A DNA stretch of 64,000 nucleotides from a virus, in the IMG/VR virus record IMGVR_UViG_3300044461_000051, positions 737 to 64,736 of that record; one strand, given 5' to 3'. The notes beneath the pieces are model-generated. The model saw only the letters and a program-made list of their open reading frames with translations. It was not told where the DNA came from and made no database searches. Made by a program: the position numbers and the translations under genes. Of the stretch, positions 7,696-20,928 are shown piece after piece. Position 1 is the stretch's first letter. Each line of letters begins with the position of its first letter.

Positions 7696-7893
7696 ATGAC
7701 GACGACAAGCAACGCAGCAGCGCCGACGATCGAAGTGTTCCTCGTTCGTGTCCGCGACGTGTACGCCAAGTGCGATGTCGAAGAAGCCGACGTGCTGTCG
7801 AAGCAAGAAGCCGACGCGTGGGTGAAGGAATGGCGCTCGATGTACTCGCGCGAAGACGGGTTCCGCGTGACGTGCAAGATCGTTCTTCGCTAA
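7696..7893 (+). CDS. Early hypothetical protein (65 aa)
   Basis: SD GAAAGGA, ATG 7696. Confidence 0.7.
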   Translation: MTTTSNAAAPTIEVFLVRVRDVYAKCDVEEADVLSKQEADAWVKEWRSMYSREDGFRVTCKIVLR

Positions 7894-7914
7894 CTCAGAA
7901 AGCCAGAAAGGAAC

Positions 7915-8202
7915 ATGATCATGAACCTGACCAACAACGAACTTCTCGCCCTTCGCGCCATTTTCAACAGCGAATATCAAGGCGGCGACTCGCCCGAGTG
8001 CGTCGTCAACAACCAAGTCTGGACCAGCTACTGCAACCCGTTCAATTCGAAGCGCACCTTCTCTGGCGTGATCGCGTCACTCGTCAAGAAGGGACTCGTC
8101 AAGACCGGCGGGAGCAGCGCCGACGCGAACCACGCCGCCGGGTGCGACGGCACCACGCTAGCCCTCACCCTCGACGGCTACAACGCCGCGCGCCACAACT
8201 GA
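7915..8202 (+). CDS. Early hypothetical protein, possible winged helix (ASLVKKGLV)
   Basis: Start-associated motif plus SD. Confidence 0.65.
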   Translation: MIMNLTNNELLALRAIFNSEYQGGDSPECVVNNQVWTSYCNPFNSKRTFSGVIASLVKKGLVKTGGSSADANHAAGCDGTTLALTLDGYNAARHN

Positions 8203-8213
8203 GAAAGAGAGCC

Positions 8214-8486
8214 ATGAACGCACGCTTCCAATTCAACACGGGCCGCCTCTACACGCAAGAGGGGCAAGTCATTGTCGCAACGAACGACGGGGCGACGATC
8301 CTGTTCAATGACACGTCGCGCAGTGTGATGGGCGCGATCCTGTGCAACGAGTTTACCTGCGACCTGACGGGCACGGGACTCGCTGATCACGTCATGCGCT
8401 GCTACGACCGCGGGAACTACCGGGGCATCAGCAGCAGCGAAGCGCCGCAGCTCGACAGAGCCGCTCCCGTTGTGCACGTGTACTGA
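8214..8486 (+). CDS. Early hypothetical protein (90 aa)
   Basis: Start-associated motif before ATG 8214; the track's 7638 start is a read-through artefact. Confidence 0.7.
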   Translation: MNARFQFNTGRLYTQEGQVIVATNDGATILFNDTSRSVMGAILCNEFTCDLTGTGLADHVMRCYDRGNYRGISSSEAPQLDRAAPVVHVY

Positions 8487-8510
8487 GCCAACTGAGAAAG
8501 AGAGACAGCC

Positions 8511-8975
8511 ATGACCAAACGAGTCCCGATCGCGATCGACACGACCGTCGCCGGCGCGATCAACACAGCATTCGGCGTGCTTGAAGAACTCGCCGAAGAG
8601 ATGCGCGAAGCGTACGAAAACACGCCCGAATCGCTGCAGAGCAGCGCAGTCGGCGAGGCGCGCAGCGAAGCTGCTGATGCGCTTGAGTCGATCAGCGAGC
8701 CCGACATGCCCGAGTGGGCCGCCGACGTTGCAGTCAAGTTCACGCTGCTGCCGTTGAAGCGCAACGCGTCACGCAGCGCGCGTCGCGATGAAGCTGTCGA
8801 GTACGCCCGCCAAGCCTTTGAGGCGCTTGAGGCGCATCGTGAGCAGCAAGCTGCCATCGAGACGACCGACGACGAAAACACTGACCTTATCGACGCACTC
8901 GACGCACTGCTCGACGAGACGCAGACCATGATCGACGAAGCCGAAGCCGTCGAGTTCCCCGGGATGTACGCATGA
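8511..8975 (+). CDS. Acidic helical hypothetical protein
   Basis: Start-associated motif; very D/E-rich. Confidence 0.75.
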   Translation: MTKRVPIAIDTTVAGAINTAFGVLEELAEEMREAYENTPESLQSSAVGEARSEAADALESISEPDMPEWAADVAVKFTLLPLKRNASRSARRDEAVEYARQAFEALEAHREQQAAIETTDDENTDLIDALDALLDETQTMIDEAEAVEFPGMYA

Positions 8976-9352
8976 ACGACTTCCGCGAACTCGTCAACGT
9001 GCTAGCCCCCGCGCTCGGCATGACCCCCGATCAACTGCTGGGCCAGATCGCCGCACGCAAAGCACGCGCAGAGCGTCAAGCGCAGCGCGCGTCAGCACGC
9101 TACACCGACGCGCTGCACCACATCACTGTCGAGCAAGCTGCGCAGATCGAGCTGCTGCGCAGCGAGCACAGCGCACGCATGCAGAGCGGGATCCGACAAC
9201 ATCGCGTGTCGGAGAACGTCGTCGTGTTCATGCAAGCGCAGAAGTGGAACGCTGCTGTCGGGCGCATGGGCACGAAGCTGTATGCCGTGTATCCCGACGG
9301 GAGCCGCAGCGAGACGTTTGAACGCAGCATTTCTGTGCGTCGCGATTTCTGA
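8972..9352 (+). CDS. Hypothetical protein
   Basis: ATGA overlap with the previous gene. Confidence 0.7.
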   Translation: MNDFRELVNVLAPALGMTPDQLLGQIAARKARAERQAQRASARYTDALHHITVEQAAQIELLRSEHSARMQSGIRQHRVSENVVVFMQAQKWNAAVGRMGTKLYAVYPDGSRSETFERSISVRRDF

Positions 9353-9354
9353 TC

Positions 9355-9528
9355 ATGCTGAACTACTGCCGCGGCGGATTCGGGGTGCCCTCGCAGGGCG
9401 GGGCACGTTGGGCCAACTACGCTGTGTGTGAAGTCTGCGGTAAGCGTGTGCAAGTCACGCAGTCGGGACGACTGCGCGCGCACGGGACGACACGCACAGC
9501 ACCTACCACTGAGAAAGGGAAGAAATGA
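9355..9528 (+). CDS. Small Zn-ribbon-like protein (57 aa)
   Basis: Below track cutoff; MLNYC...CEVC...AH; fills the gap and couples to the next gene via ATGA. Confidence 0.5.
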   Translation: MLNYCRGGFGVPSQGGARWANYAVCEVCGKRVQVTQSGRLRAHGTTRTAPTTEKGKK

Positions 9529-9728
9529 AGATCAACCTCACCGACAGCCAGTTCAACACGCTGCTGACCGCGCTCGTCGCGGCGCAAGATCAGTTCTACA
9601 CAGACGCGCACGCGAGCGACGCAGCGAACCTGCCGCGACTCGGCGAGCAGTTCCGCCGCCAGGCGGACGAAGCTCGTGCGCTGTTCCGGTACATCGCGAG
9701 TCAAGAGAGCGAGGTCACCCATGTCTAA
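9525..9728 (+). CDS. Hypothetical protein (67 aa)
   Basis: Start-associated motif plus SD. Confidence 0.7.
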   Translation: MKINLTDSQFNTLLTALVAAQDQFYTDAHASDAANLPRLGEQFRRQADEARALFRYIASQESEVTHV

Positions 9729-9960
9729 GCGTCAACCCGTCGTCGAGTTCGACTCCACCCCATTCGAATTCAGCCACGGGCGCTGCCCGAAGGGGCGCGG
9801 CTCGTGGGCGTTCAGCGTCGAGCGCAATCCCGATGTCACGTCGCCGGCCGTGCTGTTCTCCCCGTCGATGACGTACGGCGAGGCGAAGCGCTTCGCCCGC
9901 GAGCACTTCCGCAAGCTCGCGTCCCACGAGTCACACATCACGCTGTACGTTCTCAGCTAG
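9721..9960 (+). CDS. Hypothetical protein (79 aa)
   Basis: SD GAGG before ATG 9721. Confidence 0.65.
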   Translation: MSKRQPVVEFDSTPFEFSHGRCPKGRGSWAFSVERNPDVTSPAVLFSPSMTYGEAKRFAREHFRKLASHESHITLYVLS

Positions 9961-9970
9961 GGGTCCATAG

Positions 9971-10009
9971 GACAGCGCACAGCGCTGTCTCCTGCGTCTC
10001 TAGCGCAGG
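9971..10009. promoter_or_regulatory. Twin palindromes/hairpins
   Basis: GACAGCGC-ACA-GCGCTGTC (9971-9989) and CCTGCG-TCTCTAG-CGCAGG (9991-10009) in an intergenic gap. Confidence 0.45.
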
Positions 10010-10035
10010 CTCACAACTCAGAAAGGAAGGACAGA

Positions 10036-10290
10036 ATGTTCAAACACACTCCCTGGCGCGTCACCGAACGCAGTGGGGCAATCCGCGGCCTCGACATCAT
10101 GTGCGGCAACATTCGCATCGCCGCTGTCAGCATCGCAAACCCAAAGGCTGCCAAGCATGCTGTGTTAATCGCTGCTGCGCCTGACCTGCTGGGCGCGCTG
10201 CGTGAGGCGCGCCACTTCGTCGGCTCTGAGAGTTTCAACCTGCGCCTGATGAACGAAATCGACGCCATTCTTGCCAAGTTGGAGGGATAA
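10036..10290 (+). CDS. Phage KHTP-W / LIAAAPDLL family hypothetical protein
   Basis: Characteristic motifs; start-associated motif. Confidence 0.7.
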   Translation: MFKHTPWRVTERSGAIRGLDIMCGNIRIAAVSIANPKAAKHAVLIAAAPDLLGALREARHFVGSESFNLRLMNEIDAILAKLEG

Positions 10291-10292
10291 TC

Positions 10293-11762
10293 ATGACGTT
10301 CATCCCCTCCCCGCAACAGGCTGCCTTCTTCGAATGGGTGCAGCACGGCGAAGGCTCGTGTGTGCTCGAGGCTGTCGCCGGCTCCGGCAAGACCACGACG
10401 CTGATCGAAGCGCTGAAGCTGATGAAGGGCCAAGTGTTCTTCGGCGCCTACAACAAGAAGATTGCCGAAGAGATCGCCGCCCGCGCGCCCAAGACCCCGG
10501 GTCTGTTCATCAGCACCATGCACGCTGCGGGCTTCCGCGCGTGGCGTCGTGCTGCAGCCGGCGTGCAAGTCAACAGCACGAAGTGCCGCGGCCTGTTCCG
10601 CCAGCTGAACATCGCGCAGGAGCTTGAGGCGCCGACACTCGCGCTCGTCAGCTACGCGAAGCAAGCGGCAGCCGGCGTCACGACGCAGACGATCAGCGAA
10701 GCGTTCTGGCACGACACCATCGAGCACTTCGACGTCGACACGCTCGACCGTGACGCCGAAGTCATCGAGGCTGCGCTCGCTGTGCTGTCGCGCTCGCAAG
10801 AGACCGACCACATCGAAGTCGACTTCGATGACATGATCTATGCGCCCCTGTTCCACCGGGCGCGCATGTTCGAACACGACTGGGTGTTGATTGACGAGGC
10901 GCAAGACACCAACGCAGCCCGTCGTGCGCTGGCGCTGCGGCTTCTGCGTCGCGGCGGCCGGCTTGTAGCGGTCGGCGATCGTCATCAGGCCATCTACGGG
11001 TTCACGGGCGCTGACGCTGACGCGCTCGACCTCATCGCCCAAGCAGTGTCCGCGGCGCCGATGCCCCTGACGGTGACGTATCGCTGCCCGAAGGCTGTCG
11101 TGCGGTGCGCGCACCAGTGGGTGCAGCACATCGAGGCGCACGAGAGCGCCCCGGAAGGGCGCGTGTCGAGCGTCCCCGCAACTCAGCCGCTCGTCGGGCT
11201 CGTGCAGCCCGGTGACGCGATCTTGTCACGCTTCAACGCCCCGCTCCTCGGGCTCGTCTACAAGTTCATTGCAGCCGGCGTCCCCGCGCAGATCGAAGGG
11301 CGCGAGATCGCTGTTGGACTCAAGCAGCTCGCACGTCGCTGGCGCGTCAAGTCATTCGACAAGCTGCTCGACCGTCTTGAGACCTACGTCGAGCGCGAAG
11401 TCGCCAAGTACCGTGCCAAAGAGCAAGAGTCACGTGCTGCAGCGATCGAAGACAAGGCCGAGTGCCTGCGCGTGCTAATCGATCGCGTGCAGCGTATCGA
11501 CCCGAGCCCGCTCGATGTCGTGCAGCGCTTGTGTGATGAGATCGACCAGCTGTTCGGCGACACGAGCAACGGGCAAAGCGCTGCGCTCGTGCTGCTGTCG
11601 ACGATTCACAAGAGCAAGGGTCGCGAGTGGGAACACGTGTTCTGGCTGCAGACGGGCCCGAGCAAGTGGGCACGCAAAGCGTGGGAGCTGGAGCAGGAGT
11701 CCAATCTCTGCTACGTCGCCGCGACGCGCGCCAAGTCTGAACTGTTCTTGGTGGGGCTGTGA
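10293..11762 (+). CDS. Second UvrD/Rep-like SF1 helicase
   Basis: AVAGSGKTT, DFDDMI, IDEAQD, VGDRHQAIYGF, TYRCP, STIHKSKGREW, YVAATRAK. Confidence 0.9.
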   Translation: MTFIPSPQQAAFFEWVQHGEGSCVLEAVAGSGKTTTLIEALKLMKGQVFFGAYNKKIAEEIAARAPKTPGLFISTMHAAGFRAWRRAAAGVQVNSTKCRGLFRQLNIAQELEAPTLALVSYAKQAAAGVTTQTISEAFWHDTIEHFDVDTLDRDAEVIEAALAVLSRSQETDHIEVDFDDMIYAPLFHRARMFEHDWVLIDEAQDTNAARRALALRLLRRGGRLVAVGDRHQAIYGFTGADADALDLIAQAVSAAPMPLTVTYRCPKAVVRCAHQWVQHIEAHESAPEGRVSSVPATQPLVGLVQPGDAILSRFNAPLLGLVYKFIAAGVPAQIEGREIAVGLKQLARRWRVKSFDKLLDRLETYVEREVAKYRAKEQESRAAAIEDKAECLRVLIDRVQRIDPSPLDVVQRLCDEIDQLFGDTSNGQSAALVLLSTIHKSKGREWEHVFWLQTGPSKWARKAWELEQESNLCYVAATRAKSELFLVGL

Positions 11763-11857
11763 TGGTGAGAGCGTTTCTGTGCTGGGTCTGCACGCTCGCA
11801 GTGTGTGCGGTCGTGTGGGTGGGTATCGTGAAGTTTCTGTTGACGTTCAACAACTGA
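11762..11857 (+). CDS. Small single-TM peptide (31 aa)
   Basis: MVRAFLCWVCTLAVCAVVWVGIVKFLLTFNN; TGATG coupling to the helicase stop. Confidence 0.45.
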   Translation: MVRAFLCWVCTLAVCAVVWVGIVKFLLTFNN

Positions 11858-11870
11858 GAAAGGGTGACAG

Positions 11871-12143
11871 ATGAACAAGCACACACCGGGACCGTGGAAG
11901 CAAGACACGTTAGGGCGCACGACTGTCTGGGCGCCCGGCGCCGGCAAGAATGCTGTGGCAGTGTGTCAGGGGCTTGAGCGTGACGAGAACATTGCCAACG
12001 CTCGCTTGATCGCTGCGGCGCCGGAACTGTACGCGGCGCTGCGCGATGCGCTCGACGCACTCAAGACTGGGACGGCTGAATCTGCCGCAGCCGTGCTGAT
12101 AGATGCTGGCCGCGCTGCGCTCGCGAAGGTGGAGGGCGCATGA
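11871..12143 (+). CDS. Phage KHTPGPW / NARLIAAAPEL family hypothetical protein
   Basis: Characteristic motifs; start-associated motif. Confidence 0.75.
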   Translation: MNKHTPGPWKQDTLGRTTVWAPGAGKNAVAVCQGLERDENIANARLIAAAPELYAALRDALDALKTGTAESAAAVLIDAGRAALAKVEGA

Positions 12144-12382
12144 CCACGCGCATTCGCAAGACCGTCAAACGCGTCACGCTGACGCCGCTGGCTAACTACG
12201 GCGCCGACCGCAAGCTCATCGTGGTGTCGATTCAGCCCGGCGACGTGCTGGGCTTTCGTCTGCTGCGCTCGCGTCGCGAGTACCTTCTGTCGATCGGCGA
12301 GGCGATGCGGTACGCGATACGCCTCGAAGTCAACCGCAAGCGAGCTGAGAAGATCGCCGCGCGCAAAACGAAGAAAGGGTAG
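12140..12382 (+). CDS. Basic hypothetical protein
   Basis: ATGA overlap; K/R-rich. Confidence 0.65.
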   Translation: MTTRIRKTVKRVTLTPLANYGADRKLIVVSIQPGDVLGFRLLRSRREYLLSIGEAMRYAIRLEVNRKRAEKIAARKTKKG

Positions 12383-12384
12383 CC

Positions 12385-12639
12385 ATGTCGCAATACGACG
12401 AACTGGTCGATCATGCCCACACGCTTGCCACGGGGCTGCTGCTGGGTTCGAAGTCGTGGCTGGGTGAGCTTAAGGACTTTGACGAACGCGAGGCAATACT
12501 CCTCGGCTTCGATCTGATGCACATCGCTGCGGAGGAGCAGTGCTCGCTGATCAAGGCGGCGAAGATTCTGCTCAAGCGCATCAACCCCGCGTCGCTCGAC
12601 GGCTACGTGCGCACGCTGCGCAAAGAGGGGGTGGGATGA
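12385..12639 (+). CDS. Hypothetical protein
   Basis: SD AAGGG; operonic. Confidence 0.65.
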   Translation: MSQYDELVDHAHTLATGLLLGSKSWLGELKDFDEREAILLGFDLMHIAAEEQCSLIKAAKILLKRINPASLDGYVRTLRKEGVG

Positions 12640-13040
12640 TCACTGCACGCAAGCACGGCGGCGACGATCGCGCGTCGTGGGCAGTGTTCATCGACGGGCG
12701 CGTGTACGTCTCAGGTCTTGAGCGTCACGAGGTCGCCTACTACAAACGCATGGCACAGGAGACAGTCATGAAGCAGAACGACGAGAAAGACGACAGCAGC
12801 TGGAACGTGCCCGAAGAGTTCGTGGGCGTCCGTGCCTGGGGCCGGTACCTGGGGTCCTTCGACTATTACATCGAGCAAGAGCAGCGCCGCGCGGTGCGTA
12901 CGCAGGCGCCGATTGACGCTCTCTACTACGACGACAAGAAGAAAGCGTGGGTGTGCGTCGACTCGCTGTCCCCGACCCACCCGTTCCGTGAAGTGTACCG
13001 ACTCGCTGTCGAGGCGCGTCAGGCTCAACTGCGGGGTTGA
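12636..13040 (+). CDS. Hypothetical protein
   Basis: ATGA overlap at 12636 with SD GAGGGGG. Confidence 0.65.
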   Translation: MITARKHGGDDRASWAVFIDGRVYVSGLERHEVAYYKRMAQETVMKQNDEKDDSSWNVPEEFVGVRAWGRYLGSFDYYIEQEQRRAVRTQAPIDALYYDDKKKAWVCVDSLSPTHPFREVYRLAVEARQAQLRG

Positions 13041-13041
13041 C

Positions 13042-13284
13042 ATGAAAACACCCTACCCGATCAGTGAGTGCAGCGTGCGCCCCTTTCATCTGTGGGACGC
13101 GAACGAGAAACGCGCGCTGCGTTGGCGCTATTACAGTGACCCGAAACGCGCGCACATGGGCGCGCTGATCGAAGCCCGTTGGGCTGCGGTCGGCAAGACC
13201 ATCGAAGTGTTCAGCGCGACGAACGGCAAGCTGCTGGGCCAGTACACGCGACGCCACAACCGCATCGACTTCACCGGAGCATGA
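13042..13284 (+). CDS. Hypothetical protein (80 aa)
   Basis: ATG directly after the previous stop. Confidence 0.65.
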   Translation: MKTPYPISECSVRPFHLWDANEKRALRWRYYSDPKRAHMGALIEARWAAVGKTIEVFSATNGKLLGQYTRRHNRIDFTGA

Positions 13285-13520
13285 TCATGGGACAAAAGTG
13301 GAGCAAGGAACAGACATTGAAGTTCCAGCGCACGATGAGAGCCAAAGCTAAACAACGAGCAGCGGCGGCGCGCGCGACAACAAGCATCCCGCTCGACACG
13401 ATCCCCGACAAGTCGCCCAAGCTGCGCCCCTCACGGGCAAAGGGCAACGAGTCGATTCAAATGGCGCGGCTCAATGTCGCGCTGGAACTTACGCGCATCC
13501 TGCGCACGTTGCTGGTCTAG
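13281..13520 (+). CDS. Basic hypothetical protein
   Basis: ATGA overlap; SD GGAG. Confidence 0.6.
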   Translation: MIMGQKWSKEQTLKFQRTMRAKAKQRAAAARATTSIPLDTIPDKSPKLRPSRAKGNESIQMARLNVALELTRILRTLLV

Positions 13521-13530
13521 GGGAGGGATC

Positions 13531-13788
13531 ATGGCAATCATCAAAGGCTGGGCACTGAAGCCCCATCTCGCGAAACCTCGTACCGTGCGCATCGCATCGA
13601 CGGGCCTGCGCTTCCTCGGCATGATGTCGCCGCCCATGGATGTGCAGATCACGTTCATCGACGAAGCGAGGCGCGAGCTTATCGAAGTCTACCTGACGAA
13701 CGAAGCCGAGGCGCGCAACGTCGTGCAGATCCTTAACGACTTTCTCGCCCGTCGTGCGAGCGTCACTAACGCCACCAGGAGCAACTAG
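13531..13788 (+). CDS. Hypothetical protein
   Basis: SD GGGAGGG before ATG 13531. Confidence 0.65.
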   Translation: MAIIKGWALKPHLAKPRTVRIASTGLRFLGMMSPPMDVQITFIDEARRELIEVYLTNEAEARNVVQILNDFLARRASVTNATRSN

Positions 13789-13789
13789 C

Positions 13790-14782
13790 ATGGCACACGA
13801 GATCGACATGAGCAACGGGCGCGCCAACATGGCCTACGTCGGTGAGGTTCCTTGGCACGGGCTGGGCAGCGAGCTGCAGGAGGGCGCGAGCATCGACGAA
13901 TGGCTCGTCGCTGCGGGGATGAACTTCACGCTGCACATGCACCCCGTGATGTACTACAACCCGAAAATCAACGCCATGCGCGTCGTCGATGACCGCCGTG
14001 TGATCGTGCGCGACGACACGCACGAGGCCCTAAGCGTCACGAGCGCCACCTATGAACTCGTGCAGCCGCGCGACGTTCTGGAGTTCTACCGCGATCTTGT
14101 CAGCGCTGCGGGCTTTCGTCTCAACACGGCCGGCGTGCTGCGCGGAGGGCGCAAGTATTGGGCGCTTGCTGAGTTAGGCGAGGAGGCTATGATCGGTGTG
14201 GGCGTCGACAAGATGAAGGGCTATCTGCTGCTGGCAACGAGCTGCGACATGAGCCTCGCGAGCACGGGGATGTTCACCGGCGTTCGTGTCGTCTGCGCCA
14301 ATACGTTGAGCTTCGCGGTCACGGGTGCTGAAGGCGATGCCAAGCGACACGTGAAAGTGCCGCACAGCAGAGTGTTCAACCCCGCGCAAGTCAAGGCGCA
14401 ATTGGGCATCGCGAGTGCCAGCTGGCACGCGTTCATCGAGCAATCGCGCAAGCTCGCCGAGACGGACGTCGAGAAGGTGCAAGCGGTCGAGTGGCTTGCA
14501 CGCGTGTTCGGCGACGCTGAGAAAACAGCCGCGGAGCAAGACGCCTCGGCAACACGCACGATGCAGCGCGTCCTTGATCTCTTCAACGGAGCCGGGCGGG
14601 GAAGCGACTTGCCAACCGCTGCAGGTACAGCGTGGGGGCTCGTCAACGCAGCGACCGAGTACCTTGATCACCATCGCAACGAGCGCAGCCCCGGCAATCG
14701 TCTCGACCGCGCATGGTTTGGCGACGGGGCAGTGCTGAAGCAGCGTGCATGGGACGAAGCGCTTGCGCTCGTCACCGTTTGA
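13790..14782 (+). CDS. DUF932 / TIGR03299-like phage-plasmid protein
   Basis: PWHGLG N-terminus, RVVCANTL, GTAWGLVNAATEY, WFG; SD AGGAG. Confidence 0.8.
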   Translation: MAHEIDMSNGRANMAYVGEVPWHGLGSELQEGASIDEWLVAAGMNFTLHMHPVMYYNPKINAMRVVDDRRVIVRDDTHEALSVTSATYELVQPRDVLEFYRDLVSAAGFRLNTAGVLRGGRKYWALAELGEEAMIGVGVDKMKGYLLLATSCDMSLASTGMFTGVRVVCANTLSFAVTGAEGDAKRHVKVPHSRVFNPAQVKAQLGIASASWHAFIEQSRKLAETDVEKVQAVEWLARVFGDAEKTAAEQDASATRTMQRVLDLFNGAGRGSDLPTAAGTAWGLVNAATEYLDHHRNERSPGNRLDRAWFGDGAVLKQRAWDEALALVTV

Positions 14783-14806
14783 CGAAGTCTGTGGCCGTGA
14801 TATACA
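14779..14806 (+). promoter_or_regulatory. Sigma70-like promoter TTGACG-N16-TATACA with extended -10 TG
   Basis: Hexamers overlap the DUF932 stop; upstream of the modification/polymerase operon. Confidence 0.5.
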
Positions 14807-14883
14807 GTTGTCTTTCGTCGGCGATTGTCGACGCTACCGCGGGCTTACCCCGCGTCACCAATGTAGGCAGAAAGGAAAACGCC

Positions 14884-15485: not shown

Positions 15486-16217
15486 ATGTTCGGCACGAAT
15501 CCCCTGCGACGCGTTGTCGTGGGGGCCGGTGACGAACTCGACGTCCAAGCCGTGTTCGGCACGATTCAGGGGGAGGGCCCGTTAGCGGGTTCTCCTTCTG
15601 TCTTTGTGCGTCTGTGGGGCTGCAATCTGCGCTGCCACTTCTGTGACACGGACTTCGAAAGCAGCACGTGGCGCCCGTCGCTCGACGAGCTGTTCGCACG
15701 CATCAAAGCTCAAGACGTTTGCGCCGACTTGATCGTGCTGACCGGCGGCGAGCCGCTGCGACAGCCGATTGGCAAGTTCATCGAGCGAGCCCTCGACAGC
15801 AGCTGGCGCGTGCAGATCGAGACGGCCGGCACTGTCTGGCCCGAGAGCATGTATAGCGACAGCGTGCAGCGTCGTCTGCATGAGGGCTCGCTGGTGCTCG
15901 TCTGTTCCCCTAAAACCGGGCGCGTCCACGCGCAGATCGAGCGCTGGTGTCGGCACTTCAAGTACATCACGTGTGCTGCTGACGACGGCCCGATTACCGC
16001 GGTACGTGAGTCAACACAGACGCGGGGGCTACGCGCCAAGCTGTACGTGCCCTTCAACGATGCGACGATCTGGCTGCAGCCGCGCATGGACTACACGCCC
16101 ACGGGTGCCGTTGACACCGTCGCCACCGAAGCGAACACGCAGCAGGCGGTACGCTTGTGCATGCGGTACGGGTATCGCCTGTCGCTTCAAACACACAAAC
16201 TCCTGGGGGTCGAATGA
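15486..16217 (+). CDS. queE: 7-carboxy-7-deazaguanine synthase (radical SAM)
   Basis: TIQGEG, FVRLWGCNLRCHFCDT (CxxxCxxC), TGGEP, IETAG, CSPK, SLQTHK. Confidence 0.93.
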   Translation: MFGTNPLRRVVVGAGDELDVQAVFGTIQGEGPLAGSPSVFVRLWGCNLRCHFCDTDFESSTWRPSLDELFARIKAQDVCADLIVLTGGEPLRQPIGKFIERALDSSWRVQIETAGTVWPESMYSDSVQRRLHEGSLVLVCSPKTGRVHAQIERWCRHFKYITCAADDGPITAVRESTQTRGLRAKLYVPFNDATIWLQPRMDYTPTGAVDTVATEANTQQAVRLCMRYGYRLSLQTHKLLGVE

Positions 16218-16984
16218 CGAGCGGTTCAGCGGTTGTCGTTTTGTCGGGCGGGCAGGACAGCACCACAGCCCTGTTCTGGGCCAAGGGCTTGTTCGATGAA
16301 CTTTACGCCATCACGTTTGACTACGGGCAGCGGCACAGCATTGAAGTCGATGCTGCCATGAAAGTCGCAAAGCTCGCCGGCGTCGCAAAGCACGAAGTGA
16401 TCGACTGCGCAGGCTTGCTGTGCAGCGCCAGCCCGTTGACGAGCAGCGCGCCGCTTGAGAAATATGCCGACTACAAGCAGATGGACAAAGTGATCGGCAA
16501 GCGTGTCGAGGTCACCTTCGTCCCGATGCGCAACACATTTTTCCTCACGCTCGCGATGAATCGTGCGGTCGCGTGGGGCGCTCGCCGTGTCGTCCTTGGC
16601 ATCTGTCAAGAAGATAATGCCAATTACCCTGACTGCACAGAGAGGTTCCGCGGCTCGTTCGAAACGATGACCAACATCTCTCTAGGGCGCCGTCTTCTCG
16701 CTGAACGTATCTGCCTCCTTGCGCCGTTGATGCACATGAGCAAGGCGCAGACGTGCCAACTTGCACACTCGATGCCCGACTGCTGGGAGGCGCTTGCTTA
16801 CACGCATACGTCCTACGACGGGCGGTACCCGCCGACCGACATGAATCACGCCAACGTGTTGCGGGCACACGGTTTTGAGCAAGCGGGCCTGCCCGACCCG
16901 CTCGTGCTGCGCGCCGTGCGTGAAGGGCTGATGGAGTTGCCCAACACAGACAACTATAGCGACTTTGTCGTGGCCCGAGGCTAG
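16214..16984 (+). CDS. queC: 7-cyano-7-deazaguanine (preQ0) synthase
   Basis: SGGQDS PP-loop, FDYGQRH, VPMRN, YPDC; the C-terminal Zn cysteines are absent. Confidence 0.9.
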   Translation: MTSGSAVVVLSGGQDSTTALFWAKGLFDELYAITFDYGQRHSIEVDAAMKVAKLAGVAKHEVIDCAGLLCSASPLTSSAPLEKYADYKQMDKVIGKRVEVTFVPMRNTFFLTLAMNRAVAWGARRVVLGICQEDNANYPDCTERFRGSFETMTNISLGRRLLAERICLLAPLMHMSKAQTCQLAHSMPDCWEALAYTHTSYDGRYPPTDMNHANVLRAHGFEQAGLPDPLVLRAVREGLMELPNTDNYSDFVVARG

Positions 16985-16985
16985 C

Positions 16986-17438
16986 ATGCCCATATACGCA
17001 TCGAGATACCACGACTTCACTAGCGGGCACCGCGTGCACAATCACGAGTCGAAGTGTGCTTACCTGCATGGGCACAACTATCGCGCCCACTTCACAGTGA
17101 CGCCCATCAAGGAGCTTGACGCACTAGGACGTGTCGTCGACTTCAGCGTTCTGCGCGTGACGCTTTGCGCGTGGCTAGAGTCTGCGTGGGACCACAGGTT
17201 TCTCGCGTGGGAACGCGACCCCGTGATGCGCGAGCTGTCACAACTGCAAACGTCCGAGGACGCCCGTCGCGTGCTCAGTGAGAGCATCGTCTGGGTGCCC
17301 TTCAATCCCACTGCAGAAAATATGTCCACATACTTGCTCAACGTCGTCGGCCCGCGTCTGTTGCAGAATACGAATGTGCGCCTGACGCGCGTCGTGCTCG
17401 AGGAGACGCGCAAGTGCAGTGCGGAGGCCTCGCTATGA
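16986..17438 (+). CDS. queD: 6-carboxy-5,6,7,8-tetrahydropterin synthase
   Basis: GHRV..HESKCAYLHGHNY, NPTAEN, ET motifs. Confidence 0.92.
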   Translation: MPIYASRYHDFTSGHRVHNHESKCAYLHGHNYRAHFTVTPIKELDALGRVVDFSVLRVTLCAWLESAWDHRFLAWERDPVMRELSQLQTSEDARRVLSESIVWVPFNPTAENMSTYLLNVVGPRLLQNTNVRLTRVVLEETRKCSAEASL

Positions 17439-17998
17439 TGACCGAGGGGCTTATCGAAAGACTCTTGTCCAATCTCGATCCCCTGCCTGACCGTGAAGGG
17501 TTGCGTGACACCCCGCGACGTGTCGCAGAGGCTTGGGACTTCTGGACAAGCGGGCATCGGGAGAACATCGACGACGTGCTCAAGTCGTTCGCCGACGGCA
17601 GTGATGGTTACGACGAGATGGTCATCGAGACCGACATCCCGGTGTACTCAAAATGCGAGCACCATCTCGCTGACATCTTCGGCGTGGCGCACGTCGGGTA
17701 TATTCCCAACGGGCGCATCGTGGGGCTGTCTAAGATCGTGCGCGTCGTCGAGCACTTCGCGCGACGTCTGCAAGTGCAGGAGCGCCTGACTGTGCAGATC
17801 GCCGACACGCTGCACGCTGCGCTGCACGCGCAGGGAGTGGGCGTCGTGCTGCAGTGCCGACATATGTGCATGGAGTCGCGAGGCGTCAATCGTCCGGGCG
17901 TCGTCACGACGACGACATGCCTGCGCGGGGCCCTTCGTGAAGAGCCCGAGACGCGCGCCGAGTTTCTTGCGATGGTCAACGGGAGGCGCTCGTGCTGA
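17435..17998 (+). CDS. folE: GTP cyclohydrolase I
   Basis: GLRDTPRRVA, CEHHL, GLSK, LQVQERLT, HMCMESRG. Confidence 0.95.
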   Translation: MMTEGLIERLLSNLDPLPDREGLRDTPRRVAEAWDFWTSGHRENIDDVLKSFADGSDGYDEMVIETDIPVYSKCEHHLADIFGVAHVGYIPNGRIVGLSKIVRVVEHFARRLQVQERLTVQIADTLHAALHAQGVGVVLQCRHMCMESRGVNRPGVVTTTTCLRGALREEPETRAEFLAMVNGRRSC

Positions 17999-18624
17999 AC
18001 GATAGCCTCGACAAAGTCATCGGCAGTTATTTCAGCGTGGTCAACGCTGCGCCCTTCACCTACAAGCGCAAGACGTATGACCCGCGTCCGCTGCGTGTCA
18101 GCCCTGCACTTGCCCGTGGGCTCATCTGCCCCCCGCAGTGTGCCGGCTGCTGCCCTCGCTTCTCGCTGGACTATCTGCCCTTTGAAGACGTGCCCTATGC
18201 GTTGCCCTCGCGACAGATCGTCGTCAACGGCAAGGAGTTCGCAGTGCTGTCTGATCTGCAAGAGCCGGGGTGGCACTGCAAGAACGTCGACATGATAACG
18301 GGGCGCTGCGTCGTGCACGGCAAGCAGCCCTTCAGTTGTGACTTTGAGATCGTGCGCACCAAGCACTTCACGAGCGCCAACATAAGCAATCAACTGCTCA
18401 CTGCGCCCTTCGGGCGTGCCTGGGCATTGAAACGTGTTGACGACGAGCGCGGGGCGCTGTGCGAAATTACGCCGGTGTCATACCAGAACGCGCAAGAGGC
18501 TGCGCGCAAGCTGCGACGACTCGCACGTTGGATGGAATACTTTGAAGTGCCCCACCGGATCGATCCCATCACGCTCTGGCTTGAGCGTGGCGACTACCAG
18601 TCAGGAAAGCCCCTCCTCATATGA
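17992..18624 (+). CDS. YkgJ/FliB-like Cys-cluster (Fe-S or Zn) protein; candidate preQ1 methyltransferase (DpdM-like)
   Basis: CPPQCAGCC and C-x8-C..H..QPFSC motifs; overlaps folE and queF. Confidence 0.55.
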
Positions 18625-19040
18625 GCAAACTCAAAGCACTTGGCAGCGGCACAGGCTACGTGTACGACAGGCCCAACCGCGAGATGCTTGAGCGCTTCGC
18701 TGCGCCCTCAAGCATCTCAGCAGCGAACCCGCGGGGCACGCATCAGTCGATCACCATACGGGCGCCCGAGTTCACGAGCTTGTGCCCCATCACCGGACAA
18801 CCCGACTTCGCCACGATCGTCATCGACTACGTGCCCGACCAATGGTGCGTCGAGTCGAAGTCATTGAAGCTGTATCTGGGCGCGTATCGCATGGAGGGCG
18901 AGTTTCACGAGGCGTGCGTGAATAAAATTTGCAACGATCTCGTGGCCGTGCTCGACCCTAGCGCGCTGACTGTGCGCGGCGAGTTCACTCCGCGCGGCGG
19001 CATCCCGTTCTGGCCCACGAGCAGGTACCTGAAGAAATGA
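18621..19040 (+). CDS. queF: NADPH-dependent preQ0 reductase (unimodular QueF)
   Basis: [14 protein letters not shown] catalytic Cys/Asp, QueF motif [14 protein letters not shown]. Confidence 0.92.
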
Positions 19041-19978
19041 GATTGTTCTTCTCTGGGTGGGGGCACAAGAACGTCGAATTCGACGAGCGCGTCAGCACGC
19101 TTGGCACGCGCTATCGCTTGCTGTCGTGCCACGGCGACTACCTGCGCCCCGCCCATCACTTCAGCCGCGCCCTGCACACGCTACAACAGCCGTTCGAAAT
19201 CATGTATGACAGCGGCGCCTTCACAGCGTGGAGCAAGGGCAAGGAGATCACGCTCGACGAGCTGATCGCGGTGTATGACGAGATGATCGCCAAGTATGAG
19301 AGCGGGGCGCAAGCCATTTGGCTCATCTCGCTCGACAAGATTCCGGGCAGCCCCGGGCGCACCGCGACACCCGACGAGATCGACGAGGCGTGCCGCATCA
19401 GCGACGAGAACTTCGCCGTGCTGCAAAAGCGCTACGGCAAGCGTGTGCTGCCCGTGTTTCATCAGAACGAATCAGCGCAGCGCTTGCGCGACGTCGCAGC
19501 CATGGCGGATTACATCTGCGTGTCGCCGCGCAATGACTTGCCCGAGCGCTCGCGTCGTCGCTGGGCGATGGAGGCGCATGCCGACATCCCCGGCAAGAAC
19601 ACGCACGGGCTCGCCACCACAGGCTTCTCGATGATGTCCCAAGTCCCGTGGGGCAGCGTTGACAGCGCGACGTGGATCTGGCTCGCGATGAACGGCGCTG
19701 TGTTTTACAGCAAGACGCTGCGCGGGCTGCAACTGTCGAGCAAGTCGGTTACGCTGAAAGACACGGGCAAGCACTACCGCACGCTGTCAACAGTCGAGCA
19801 GCAAGCGTTTACCGAATCGGTCGAGCGTCGCGGGTTCACGATTCACGAGCTGGAAGACAACTTCTACCACCGCATCATCTTCAACCGCGTGATCATGACC
19901 GAGACCTACACGACACTGCCCACCCCTGCGCAAATCGCACACAACGTACCCGTCGAACAATCATTGTTTGGACTATGA
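19037..19978 (+). CDS. dpdA: DNA 7-deazaguanine transglycosylase (TGT-like)
   Basis: [29 protein letters not shown]; adjacent to the que genes. Confidence 0.85.
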
Positions 19979-20928
19979 TCGAGATCCTTGAACTCGTGGC
20001 CGGCGCCGTCAGCACGAAGGACCTCGTGCCGGTGCTGTCGCACTTCTGCATCTACAATGGGCGCATCCAAGGCGCCAACGGCAGAGTCGCGATCGACGCT
20101 GCCTGCCCAGGGCTCGATGATCTCACTGCGGCAGTGCCTGCCGATCGATTCCTGCGCGCTGTTACAGCATGCGGCGGCGAGCCTCGCCTGCGTGTCAACG
20201 AAGACGGGACGCGCCTCACGATCAGTCGCGGACGCTTTCGCGCGACGCTGTCACTGCTGCCCGCGTCGTATCAACTAGAAGAACCGCCGACGGGCGAGCG
20301 TATCAAGTTGCCGCAGCCCTTGCTGCCGGTGCTGCGTCGTCTTGCGCCGTTCGTCTCGACGGACGCATCACGTCCCTGGGCGTGCTCGGTACTCGTGCGC
20401 AACGGCTACGCCTACGCGACGAACAACGTGGCGATCGCCCGCGTGCCGCTCGCCGGGATCGACTGCGTGTTCCCCGCCGCCGGCATCGACGAGATCCTGC
20501 GCATCGACGAAGAGCCGACCGCGCTGCGAGTGTCGTCGACTGCGTGCTGGGTCGAGTTTTCGCGCTGCTGGCTGAAGATGCAATTGTTGCAGCAGCCGTG
20601 GCCCGACTCGCTTGCGCGCCTGATTGAACTCATGAACACAGACGCGCTGCCCGAGCTGCCGGCATCGTTGCGCGACGACGTGCTGCTGCTCAAGCCGTTC
20701 TTTCCCGACACGAGTCTGCCCGTGATACTGATGGGCCCCGAGGGCATCAGCACACAAGACGGCAAGCACAGCGCTGCGATCGAGGGCATGACGCTGCCCA
20801 AGGCCGCGTTTCGACTTGAGTCTCTGGCGCCGGTGCTCGAGGTCGCGACCCATGCCGACTTCGCGCTGTCCCCAAGCCCCTGGCGGGGCGACAATATCGT
20901 GGGGCTGTTGTCAGGGGTGCGCGTGTGA
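19975..20928 (+). CDS. DNA polymerase III beta-clamp-like protein
   Basis: N-terminus GAVSTKDLVPVLSHF..NG.I.GANG resembles DnaN; about 317 aa; between dpdA and the polymerase. Confidence 0.6.
   Translation: MIEILELVAGAVSTKDLVPVLSHFCIYNGRIQGANGRVAIDAACPGLDDLTAAVPADRFLRAVTACGGEPRLRVNEDGTRLTISRGRFRATLSLLPASYQLEEPPTGERIKLPQPLLPVLRRLAPFVSTDASRPWACSVLVRNGYAYATNNVAIARVPLAGIDCVFPAAGIDEILRIDEEPTALRVSSTACWVEFSRCWLKMQLLQQPWPDSLARLIELMNTDALPELPASLRDDVLLLKPFFPDTSLPVILMGPEGISTQDGKHSAAIEGMTLPKAAFRLESLAPVLEVATHADFALSPSPWRGDNIVGLLSGVRV

Follow-up and report, generated by a model that had tools for sequence, protein, structure and literature searches.

Modification of DNA with preQ-type bases disguises it against host restriction enzymes. 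The locus described here belongs to an uncultivated phage and raises the question of what a small cysteine-rich gene, wedged between folE and queF, adds to such a base. The preliminary description of this DNA proposed a Cys-cluster enzyme that methylates the aminomethyl group of preQ1, and left it undecided whether the gene is an orthologue of the phage enzyme DpdM. By sequence comparison it is; this supports the proposed methylation and removes the premise of the fallback offered at the time, an undescribed base made by an enzyme other than DpdM.

The gene and its cluster

The window is the whole stretch of DNA that was analysed (64,000 nucleotides). Its source is a record of a 67,180-bp linear virus with a completeness estimate of 85%, which turns up chiefly in metagenomes from sediment. 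No plasmid match was found and no RNA holder is listed; a scan for promoters and terminators stayed at chance level. [quoted passage not shown] They include queE (15489-16217), encoding a radical-SAM CDG synthase (phrog_2076, E 3e-43; PF04055), queC (16214-16984) for preQ0 synthase (PF06508, E 6e-48), queD (16986-17438) for CPH4 synthase (PF01242, phrog_2389) and folE (17435-17998) for GTP cyclohydrolase I (PF01227, E 2e-65). Beyond dpdM lie queF (18621-19040), encoding a unimodular NADPH-dependent preQ0 reductase (TIGR03139 and alignment), dpdA (19037-19978), encoding a DpdA1-type DNA guanine transglycosylase that matches DpdA of phage iggy and of the phiSM-group phages (phrog_887, E 3e-43), and the gene for a sliding-clamp-like processivity factor (19975-20928; phrog_947, E 7e-40). 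The profiles thus confirm the two neighbours as FolE and QueF, as first described. An early region with many short genes (7892-14868) includes a UvrD-like helicase (10293-11762) and a DUF932-like protein (13754-14782), identifications made by eye on the ORF list alone.

The gene itself (17992-18624) starts with GTG and encodes 210 amino acids, a predicted dPreQ1/preQ1 N-methyltransferase with eight cysteines. A Shine-Dalgarno-like GGAGG (17982-17986) lies within the 3' end of folE, 5 nt ahead of the start. The overlap with both neighbours that had been reported amounts to 7 nt with folE and 4 nt (ATGA) with queF. The CxxxCxxCC cluster also stands and is formed by C46, C50, C53 and C54. A second motif was correctly recognised but misspaced: it reads C96-x9-C106-x2-H109-x3-P113-x2-C116, with nine residues rather than eight between its first two cysteines. 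The eighth conserved cysteine, C157, had been overlooked.

This is a real gene. A shuffled genome read in six frames is expected to contain CxxxCxxCC 0.09 times, and two matches are observed; the second, at 20309, is in a frame that differs from that of the clamp gene. GC3 is 0.74, against 0.75-0.82 in neighbouring genes. The protein has 74 homologous matches at E<=1e-3, its own record counted. The ORF is present in contigs of four metagenome runs with no differences listed, and three of them cover it entirely. It is single-copy in the virus genome.

The supply of substrate depends on QueF and QueC. QueF scores 144 bits on TIGR03139 (cut-off 86.9) and keeps C55, D62, ESKSLKLY and E97; it should therefore make preQ1 and so supply the primary amine that DpdM needs. 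QueC lacks the four zinc-binding cysteines (HTSYDGRYPPT...), which raised a doubt that it yields preQ0. This doubt was largely dropped because QueC of phage iggy, 56% identical by alignment, is of the same zinc-less subtype and iggy DNA carries strictly dPreQ0 (PMC10484667), and because the subtype co-occurs with QueF. It should be noted that the host could supply the preQ0 of iggy instead of the phage QueC. The subtype is common in phages, Pan1 included, and is found with and without QueF; QueF accompanies it in 47 of 63 loci, which were not deduplicated. DpdN, a dPreQ1 formyltransferase (PF00551), decorates the same amine as DpdM but has an unrelated fold; a search of the 85%-complete virus genome found neither a DpdN-type formyltransferase nor ArcS.

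Identity as DpdM and relation to FliB

A tblastn search of 50,697 phage records with the window protein gave 27 matching records: Pseudanabaena phage Pan1 (49% identity), Mycobacterium phage Knocker (44%), 18 Vibrio phage records (including VH7D, phi-ST2 and phi-Grn1) and seven Cellulophaga records (including phiSM). Among them are phiSM, phi38:2, phi47:1, VH7D, phi-Grn1 and phi-ST2, all tied to mdPreQ1 or DpdM in PMC10516641. The phiSM match (E 4e-21) is CEPG_00054 (AGH07802.1) itself, the gene which Cui et al. 2023 named DpdM (PMC10516641). The VH7D homologue (AGB06868.1, E 7e-28) is the DpdM that was validated in E. coli (PMC10516641). Both matches extend over most of the length of these two proteins, with 83-96% cover. 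BLASTP identity is 30% with the phiSM protein (over 204 aa) and 31% with that of VH7D (over 271 columns); the two share 25% with each other (E 1e-10), and each is closer to the window protein than to the other.

The three proteins align end to end, with all eight cysteines matched one to one and the motifs DSLDK, SLDY, GRC-H and PFSC-FE in common. These cysteines are the proposed ligands of two metal sites (PMC10516641, which writes C33 and C50 where the GenBank translations give C34 and C49). Among 252 family rows they are conserved at about 100%, and the window protein agrees with the consensus at 53 of the 56 columns conserved at 75% or more; its three departures are G>A, I>V and G>D. The gene set of phiSM (folE-queDEC-queF-dpdA1) equals that of the window virus. 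There are also differences: VH7D has insertions that the window protein lacks, phiSM lacks the N-terminal segment of the window protein, and, unlike in these phages, the window dpdM sits between folE and queF, and the window QueC is of the subtype without zinc cysteines. The closer relatives, Pan1_55 and Knocker gp4, are uncharacterised. Both keep all eight cysteines and their genes adjoin queF/dpdA; unlike the window virus, Pan1 and Knocker are cultured phages. The available main text of PMC10516641 mentions neither of the two.

Comparisons of profile and structure with DpdM, which the preliminary description had proposed, agree with this identity. In hhalign, the window protein meets the two DpdM profiles with a probability of 100 (E 1e-46 and 2e-47). 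Its AF2 model has a pLDDT of 95, and the only significant viral matches in Foldseek BFVD are proteins of 214, 304 and 217 aa (TM 0.94, 0.83 and 0.76); judged by their lengths these would be the Knocker, VH7D-type and phiSM proteins, and the agreement is between predicted models on both sides. Pfam and NCBIfam give the window protein no name, and the PHROG families that it matches (21666 and 16018) carry no annotation. Searches by sequence, Foldseek and VIA-align (best Z 2.6) turned up no solved relative, from which a new fold does not follow. A tree of the family, built without an outgroup and without YkgJ or FliB sequences, is mostly unresolved; orthology therefore rests on similarity, residues and context.

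Placement in the FliB family, as originally suggested, holds at the level of the superfamily only. The window protein has no PF03692 match at E<=1; 66 of the 74 aligned members do match at E<=0.1 (best 5.5e-08), and Atlas clusters that look like DpdM are 57-71% PF03692. The link to PF03692/YkgJ thus appears real but remote. The family named in PMC10516641 is DUF3109/Rv0495c; no DpdM family member matches the corresponding PF11307, and the structural match reaches a TM of only 0.42. FliB, as described in PMC8598068, methylates the lysines of flagellin in a SAM- and [4Fe-4S]-dependent reaction. It shares with DpdM a PF03692-like Cys cluster, eight conserved cysteines and methylation of a primary amine; it differs in its spacing (CX4CX3CC, against CX3CX2CC in DpdM), its protein substrate and its state as a membrane-associated oligomer. 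Its chemistry makes it a model for DpdM, and by this analogy a SAM donor, a [4Fe-4S] cluster and a second metal site are, on balance, slightly favoured. A canonical [4Fe-4S] site in DpdM is doubted in PMC10516641.

Linkage to QueF and fusion to DpdA

The genomic company of DpdM was followed in 50 non-redundant DpdM loci and, separately, in clusters picked by DpdA or QueC alone. Within the examined flanks, 40 of the 50 loci have que or dpd genes. Where queC, queD and folE are all present, queF is nearby in 25 of 26 loci; in the remaining one it lies at a distance of about 17 kb. Several dpdM copies which seem isolated share their contig with a more distant QueF or DpdA gene, as is the case for DpdA2 in VH7D. 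Neither QueF nor DpdA was detected on the contig or genome of L051 and L056, nor QueF on that of L053; all three are incomplete. In the clusters selected by DpdA or QueC, DpdM is present in 8 of the 28 that contain QueF and in none of the 51 that lack it (Fisher p 1.2e-4, a value inflated by relatedness; independent pairs never contradict the link, but they are too few, with a median p of 0.5). The link spans DpdA1 and DpdA2 and both short and long QueF, and the window dpdM is itself encoded together with DpdA and an NADPH-type QueF. Homologues are thus tied to queF and dpdA, where an absence of linkage had been named as evidence against the proposed role. DpdM is accordingly an optional add-on to QueF pathways, which fits an enzyme that needs an amine.

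This distribution also bears on whether the protein might be a generic Fe-S protein of the YkgJ/FliB type, acting on protein lysines or servicing QueE independently of the base. The weak PF03692 matches of most family members, the lysine methylation by FliB (PMC8598068) and a few homologues outside que clusters are in keeping with such a role. It is nevertheless highly improbable: most of the 51 clusters that lack both QueF and DpdM do contain QueE, DpdM is found fused to DpdA, and the VH7D orthologue needs both DpdA2 and QueF in order to change the nucleosides of DNA (PMC10516641).

Several loci have features of their own. A complete 93-kb phage (L043) has queF, queC, queD, dpdM, queE and folE but no phrog_887 DpdA; a ParB-fused ORF of 482 aa ahead of its queF (L043:7104-8552) may contain a divergent transglycosylase. 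On the contig of L011, QueF and QueE match in unusually long frames of 551 and 522 aa (L218:13404 onward and 11808 onward), the QueE match being in two pieces; these are possibly inteins or other insertions. In L052:10001-10637 dpdM is split over two frames while the rest of the cluster is complete, through either a frameshift or an assembly error. An unnamed gene of about 200-230 aa, with no NCBIfam match, recurs between queD and queC (Pan1_50 at L003:3091-3684, and L007, L008, L014 and L029). A C-terminal domain of about 60 aa found in some DpdM proteins recurs in an unnamed 270-aa protein whose gene lies between queE and queC in a number of clusters, and matches only DUFs in the Atlas; entries with this domain are P0134, P0146, P0166, L057:964-1896, L009:7554-8357, L017:5800-6627, L020 and L052.

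Four long homologues fuse DpdM with DpdA, in two domain orders: DpdM-linker-DpdA in P0092 and P0155, and clamp-DpdA-DpdM in P0122 and P0222. Three of the four were confirmed on contig DNA with 8/8 cysteines; P0155 has one Cys-to-Ser change. P0122 (L219:294-3488) and P0222 (L224:2744-6037) are on short contigs on which no que genes were detected. P0092 (L220:7001-9340), with DUF3102 between its DpdM and DpdA parts, lies beside a resolvase, an AAA ATPase and a beta-lactamase-family gene, apparently in a non-viral mobile island without que genes that is present in two samples. Among about 220 proteins no fusion of DpdM to QueF, FolE or QueC was seen; as QueF is an oligomer, its absence is weak evidence. 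No mention of the DpdM-DpdA and clamp fusions was found in the available text of PMC10516641. A predicted complex of DpdA and DpdM scored 0.00 and carries no weight here in either direction.

The fusions support, although they do not prove, action on newly modified DNA, and DNA is the likely substrate of DpdM. Methylation of free preQ1, followed by poor insertion of methyl-preQ1 by DpdA, would lead to the same product and so overlaps with the main reading. It is consistent with the frequent abutment of dpdM and queF, with 'preQ1 or dPreQ1' as substrate in Figure 1 of PMC10516641 and with the lack of a basic groove in the VH7D model (PMC10516641). However, among the pathway enzymes only DpdA was seen joined to DpdM, in two cases along with a sliding clamp, and a phage that drains the substrate of its own DpdA would make little sense; this order of events is rather unlikely.

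The predicted base and its significance

The proposed pathway would lead from GTP to preQ0 through FolE, QueD, QueE and QueC, and from preQ0 to preQ1, with its CH2-NH2 arm, through QueF. DpdA would then exchange some guanines of the replicated phage DNA for preQ1, and DpdM would N-methylate the amine of the arm, most likely on DNA beside DpdA, to give mdPreQ1 (+14 Da), probably at a minority of dPreQ1 sites. From the sequence evidence, insertion by DpdA followed by methylation at a minority of sites is very probably what this virus does. The product would be a known base, as expression of DpdM yields mdPreQ1 (PMC10516641). In phiSM DNA mdPreQ1 amounts to 212 and dPreQ1 to 3790 per million nucleotides (PMC10516641).

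The co-expression assay in E. coli is a thin validation and leaves a gap. With VH7D DpdM, dPreQ1 dropped (2765 to 0 and 3666 to 97 per million nucleotides), while mdPreQ1 reached only 9 and 40; DpdM thus takes away 97-100% of dPreQ1 and mdPreQ1 makes up about 1% of the loss (PMC10516641 Table 2). This gap is not taken up in the passages of PMC10516641 that were consulted. In a queF mutant the insertion of dPreQ0 was unaffected by DpdM (630 against 696, and 616 against 672; PMC10516641 Table 2), so DpdA still works. Depletion of the preQ1 pool by methylation of the free base would also account for the loss.

Another way to account for the missing 99% or so would be repeated methylation, carried out on DNA in the company of DpdA and the sliding clamp by DpdM enzymes including that of the window. 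The main product would then be an undescribed N,N-dimethyl or trimethyl-ammonium dPreQ1, or another adduct, with mdPreQ1 as a minor intermediate. Quantification in E. coli was by targeted MRM without the 324.17 and 338.18 transitions (di- and trimethyl), which would miss such a product, and phiSM resists many restriction enzymes though only about 1.2% of its G is reported as modified (PMC10516641). Against this, untargeted LC-UV/QTOF of phiSM DNA gave an extra peak at 310 Da only (+14 Da), which argues against repeated methylation in vivo, and dPreQ1 still makes up about 95% of the detected modification in three phages (PMC10516641). The loss in E. coli may stem from overexpression, and no residue of the window protein departs from the family toward a new product. 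A multiply methylated base is therefore quite unlikely, and mdPreQ1 is the preferred product.

Taken by itself, the window protein is, on its sequence, a further copy of the recently described DpdM, a routine annotation that predicts a known base; the modification may serve against restriction. The family as a whole reaches far beyond the few phages of the first description, with 394 clusters (50% identity) at E<=1e-10. The tie to QueF and the fusions to DpdA and the clamp bear on whether base or DNA is the substrate. A literature search found no later paper on mdPreQ1 or DpdM after Cui et al. 2023. Knocker has dpdM and Funsized does not (L004 and L226); these Mycobacterium phages, cultured on M. 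smegmatis, have collinear clusters and DpdA proteins that are 79% identical. They form a natural, nearly matched pair that opens a methyltransferase fold without a solved structure to direct tests of what it makes and how.
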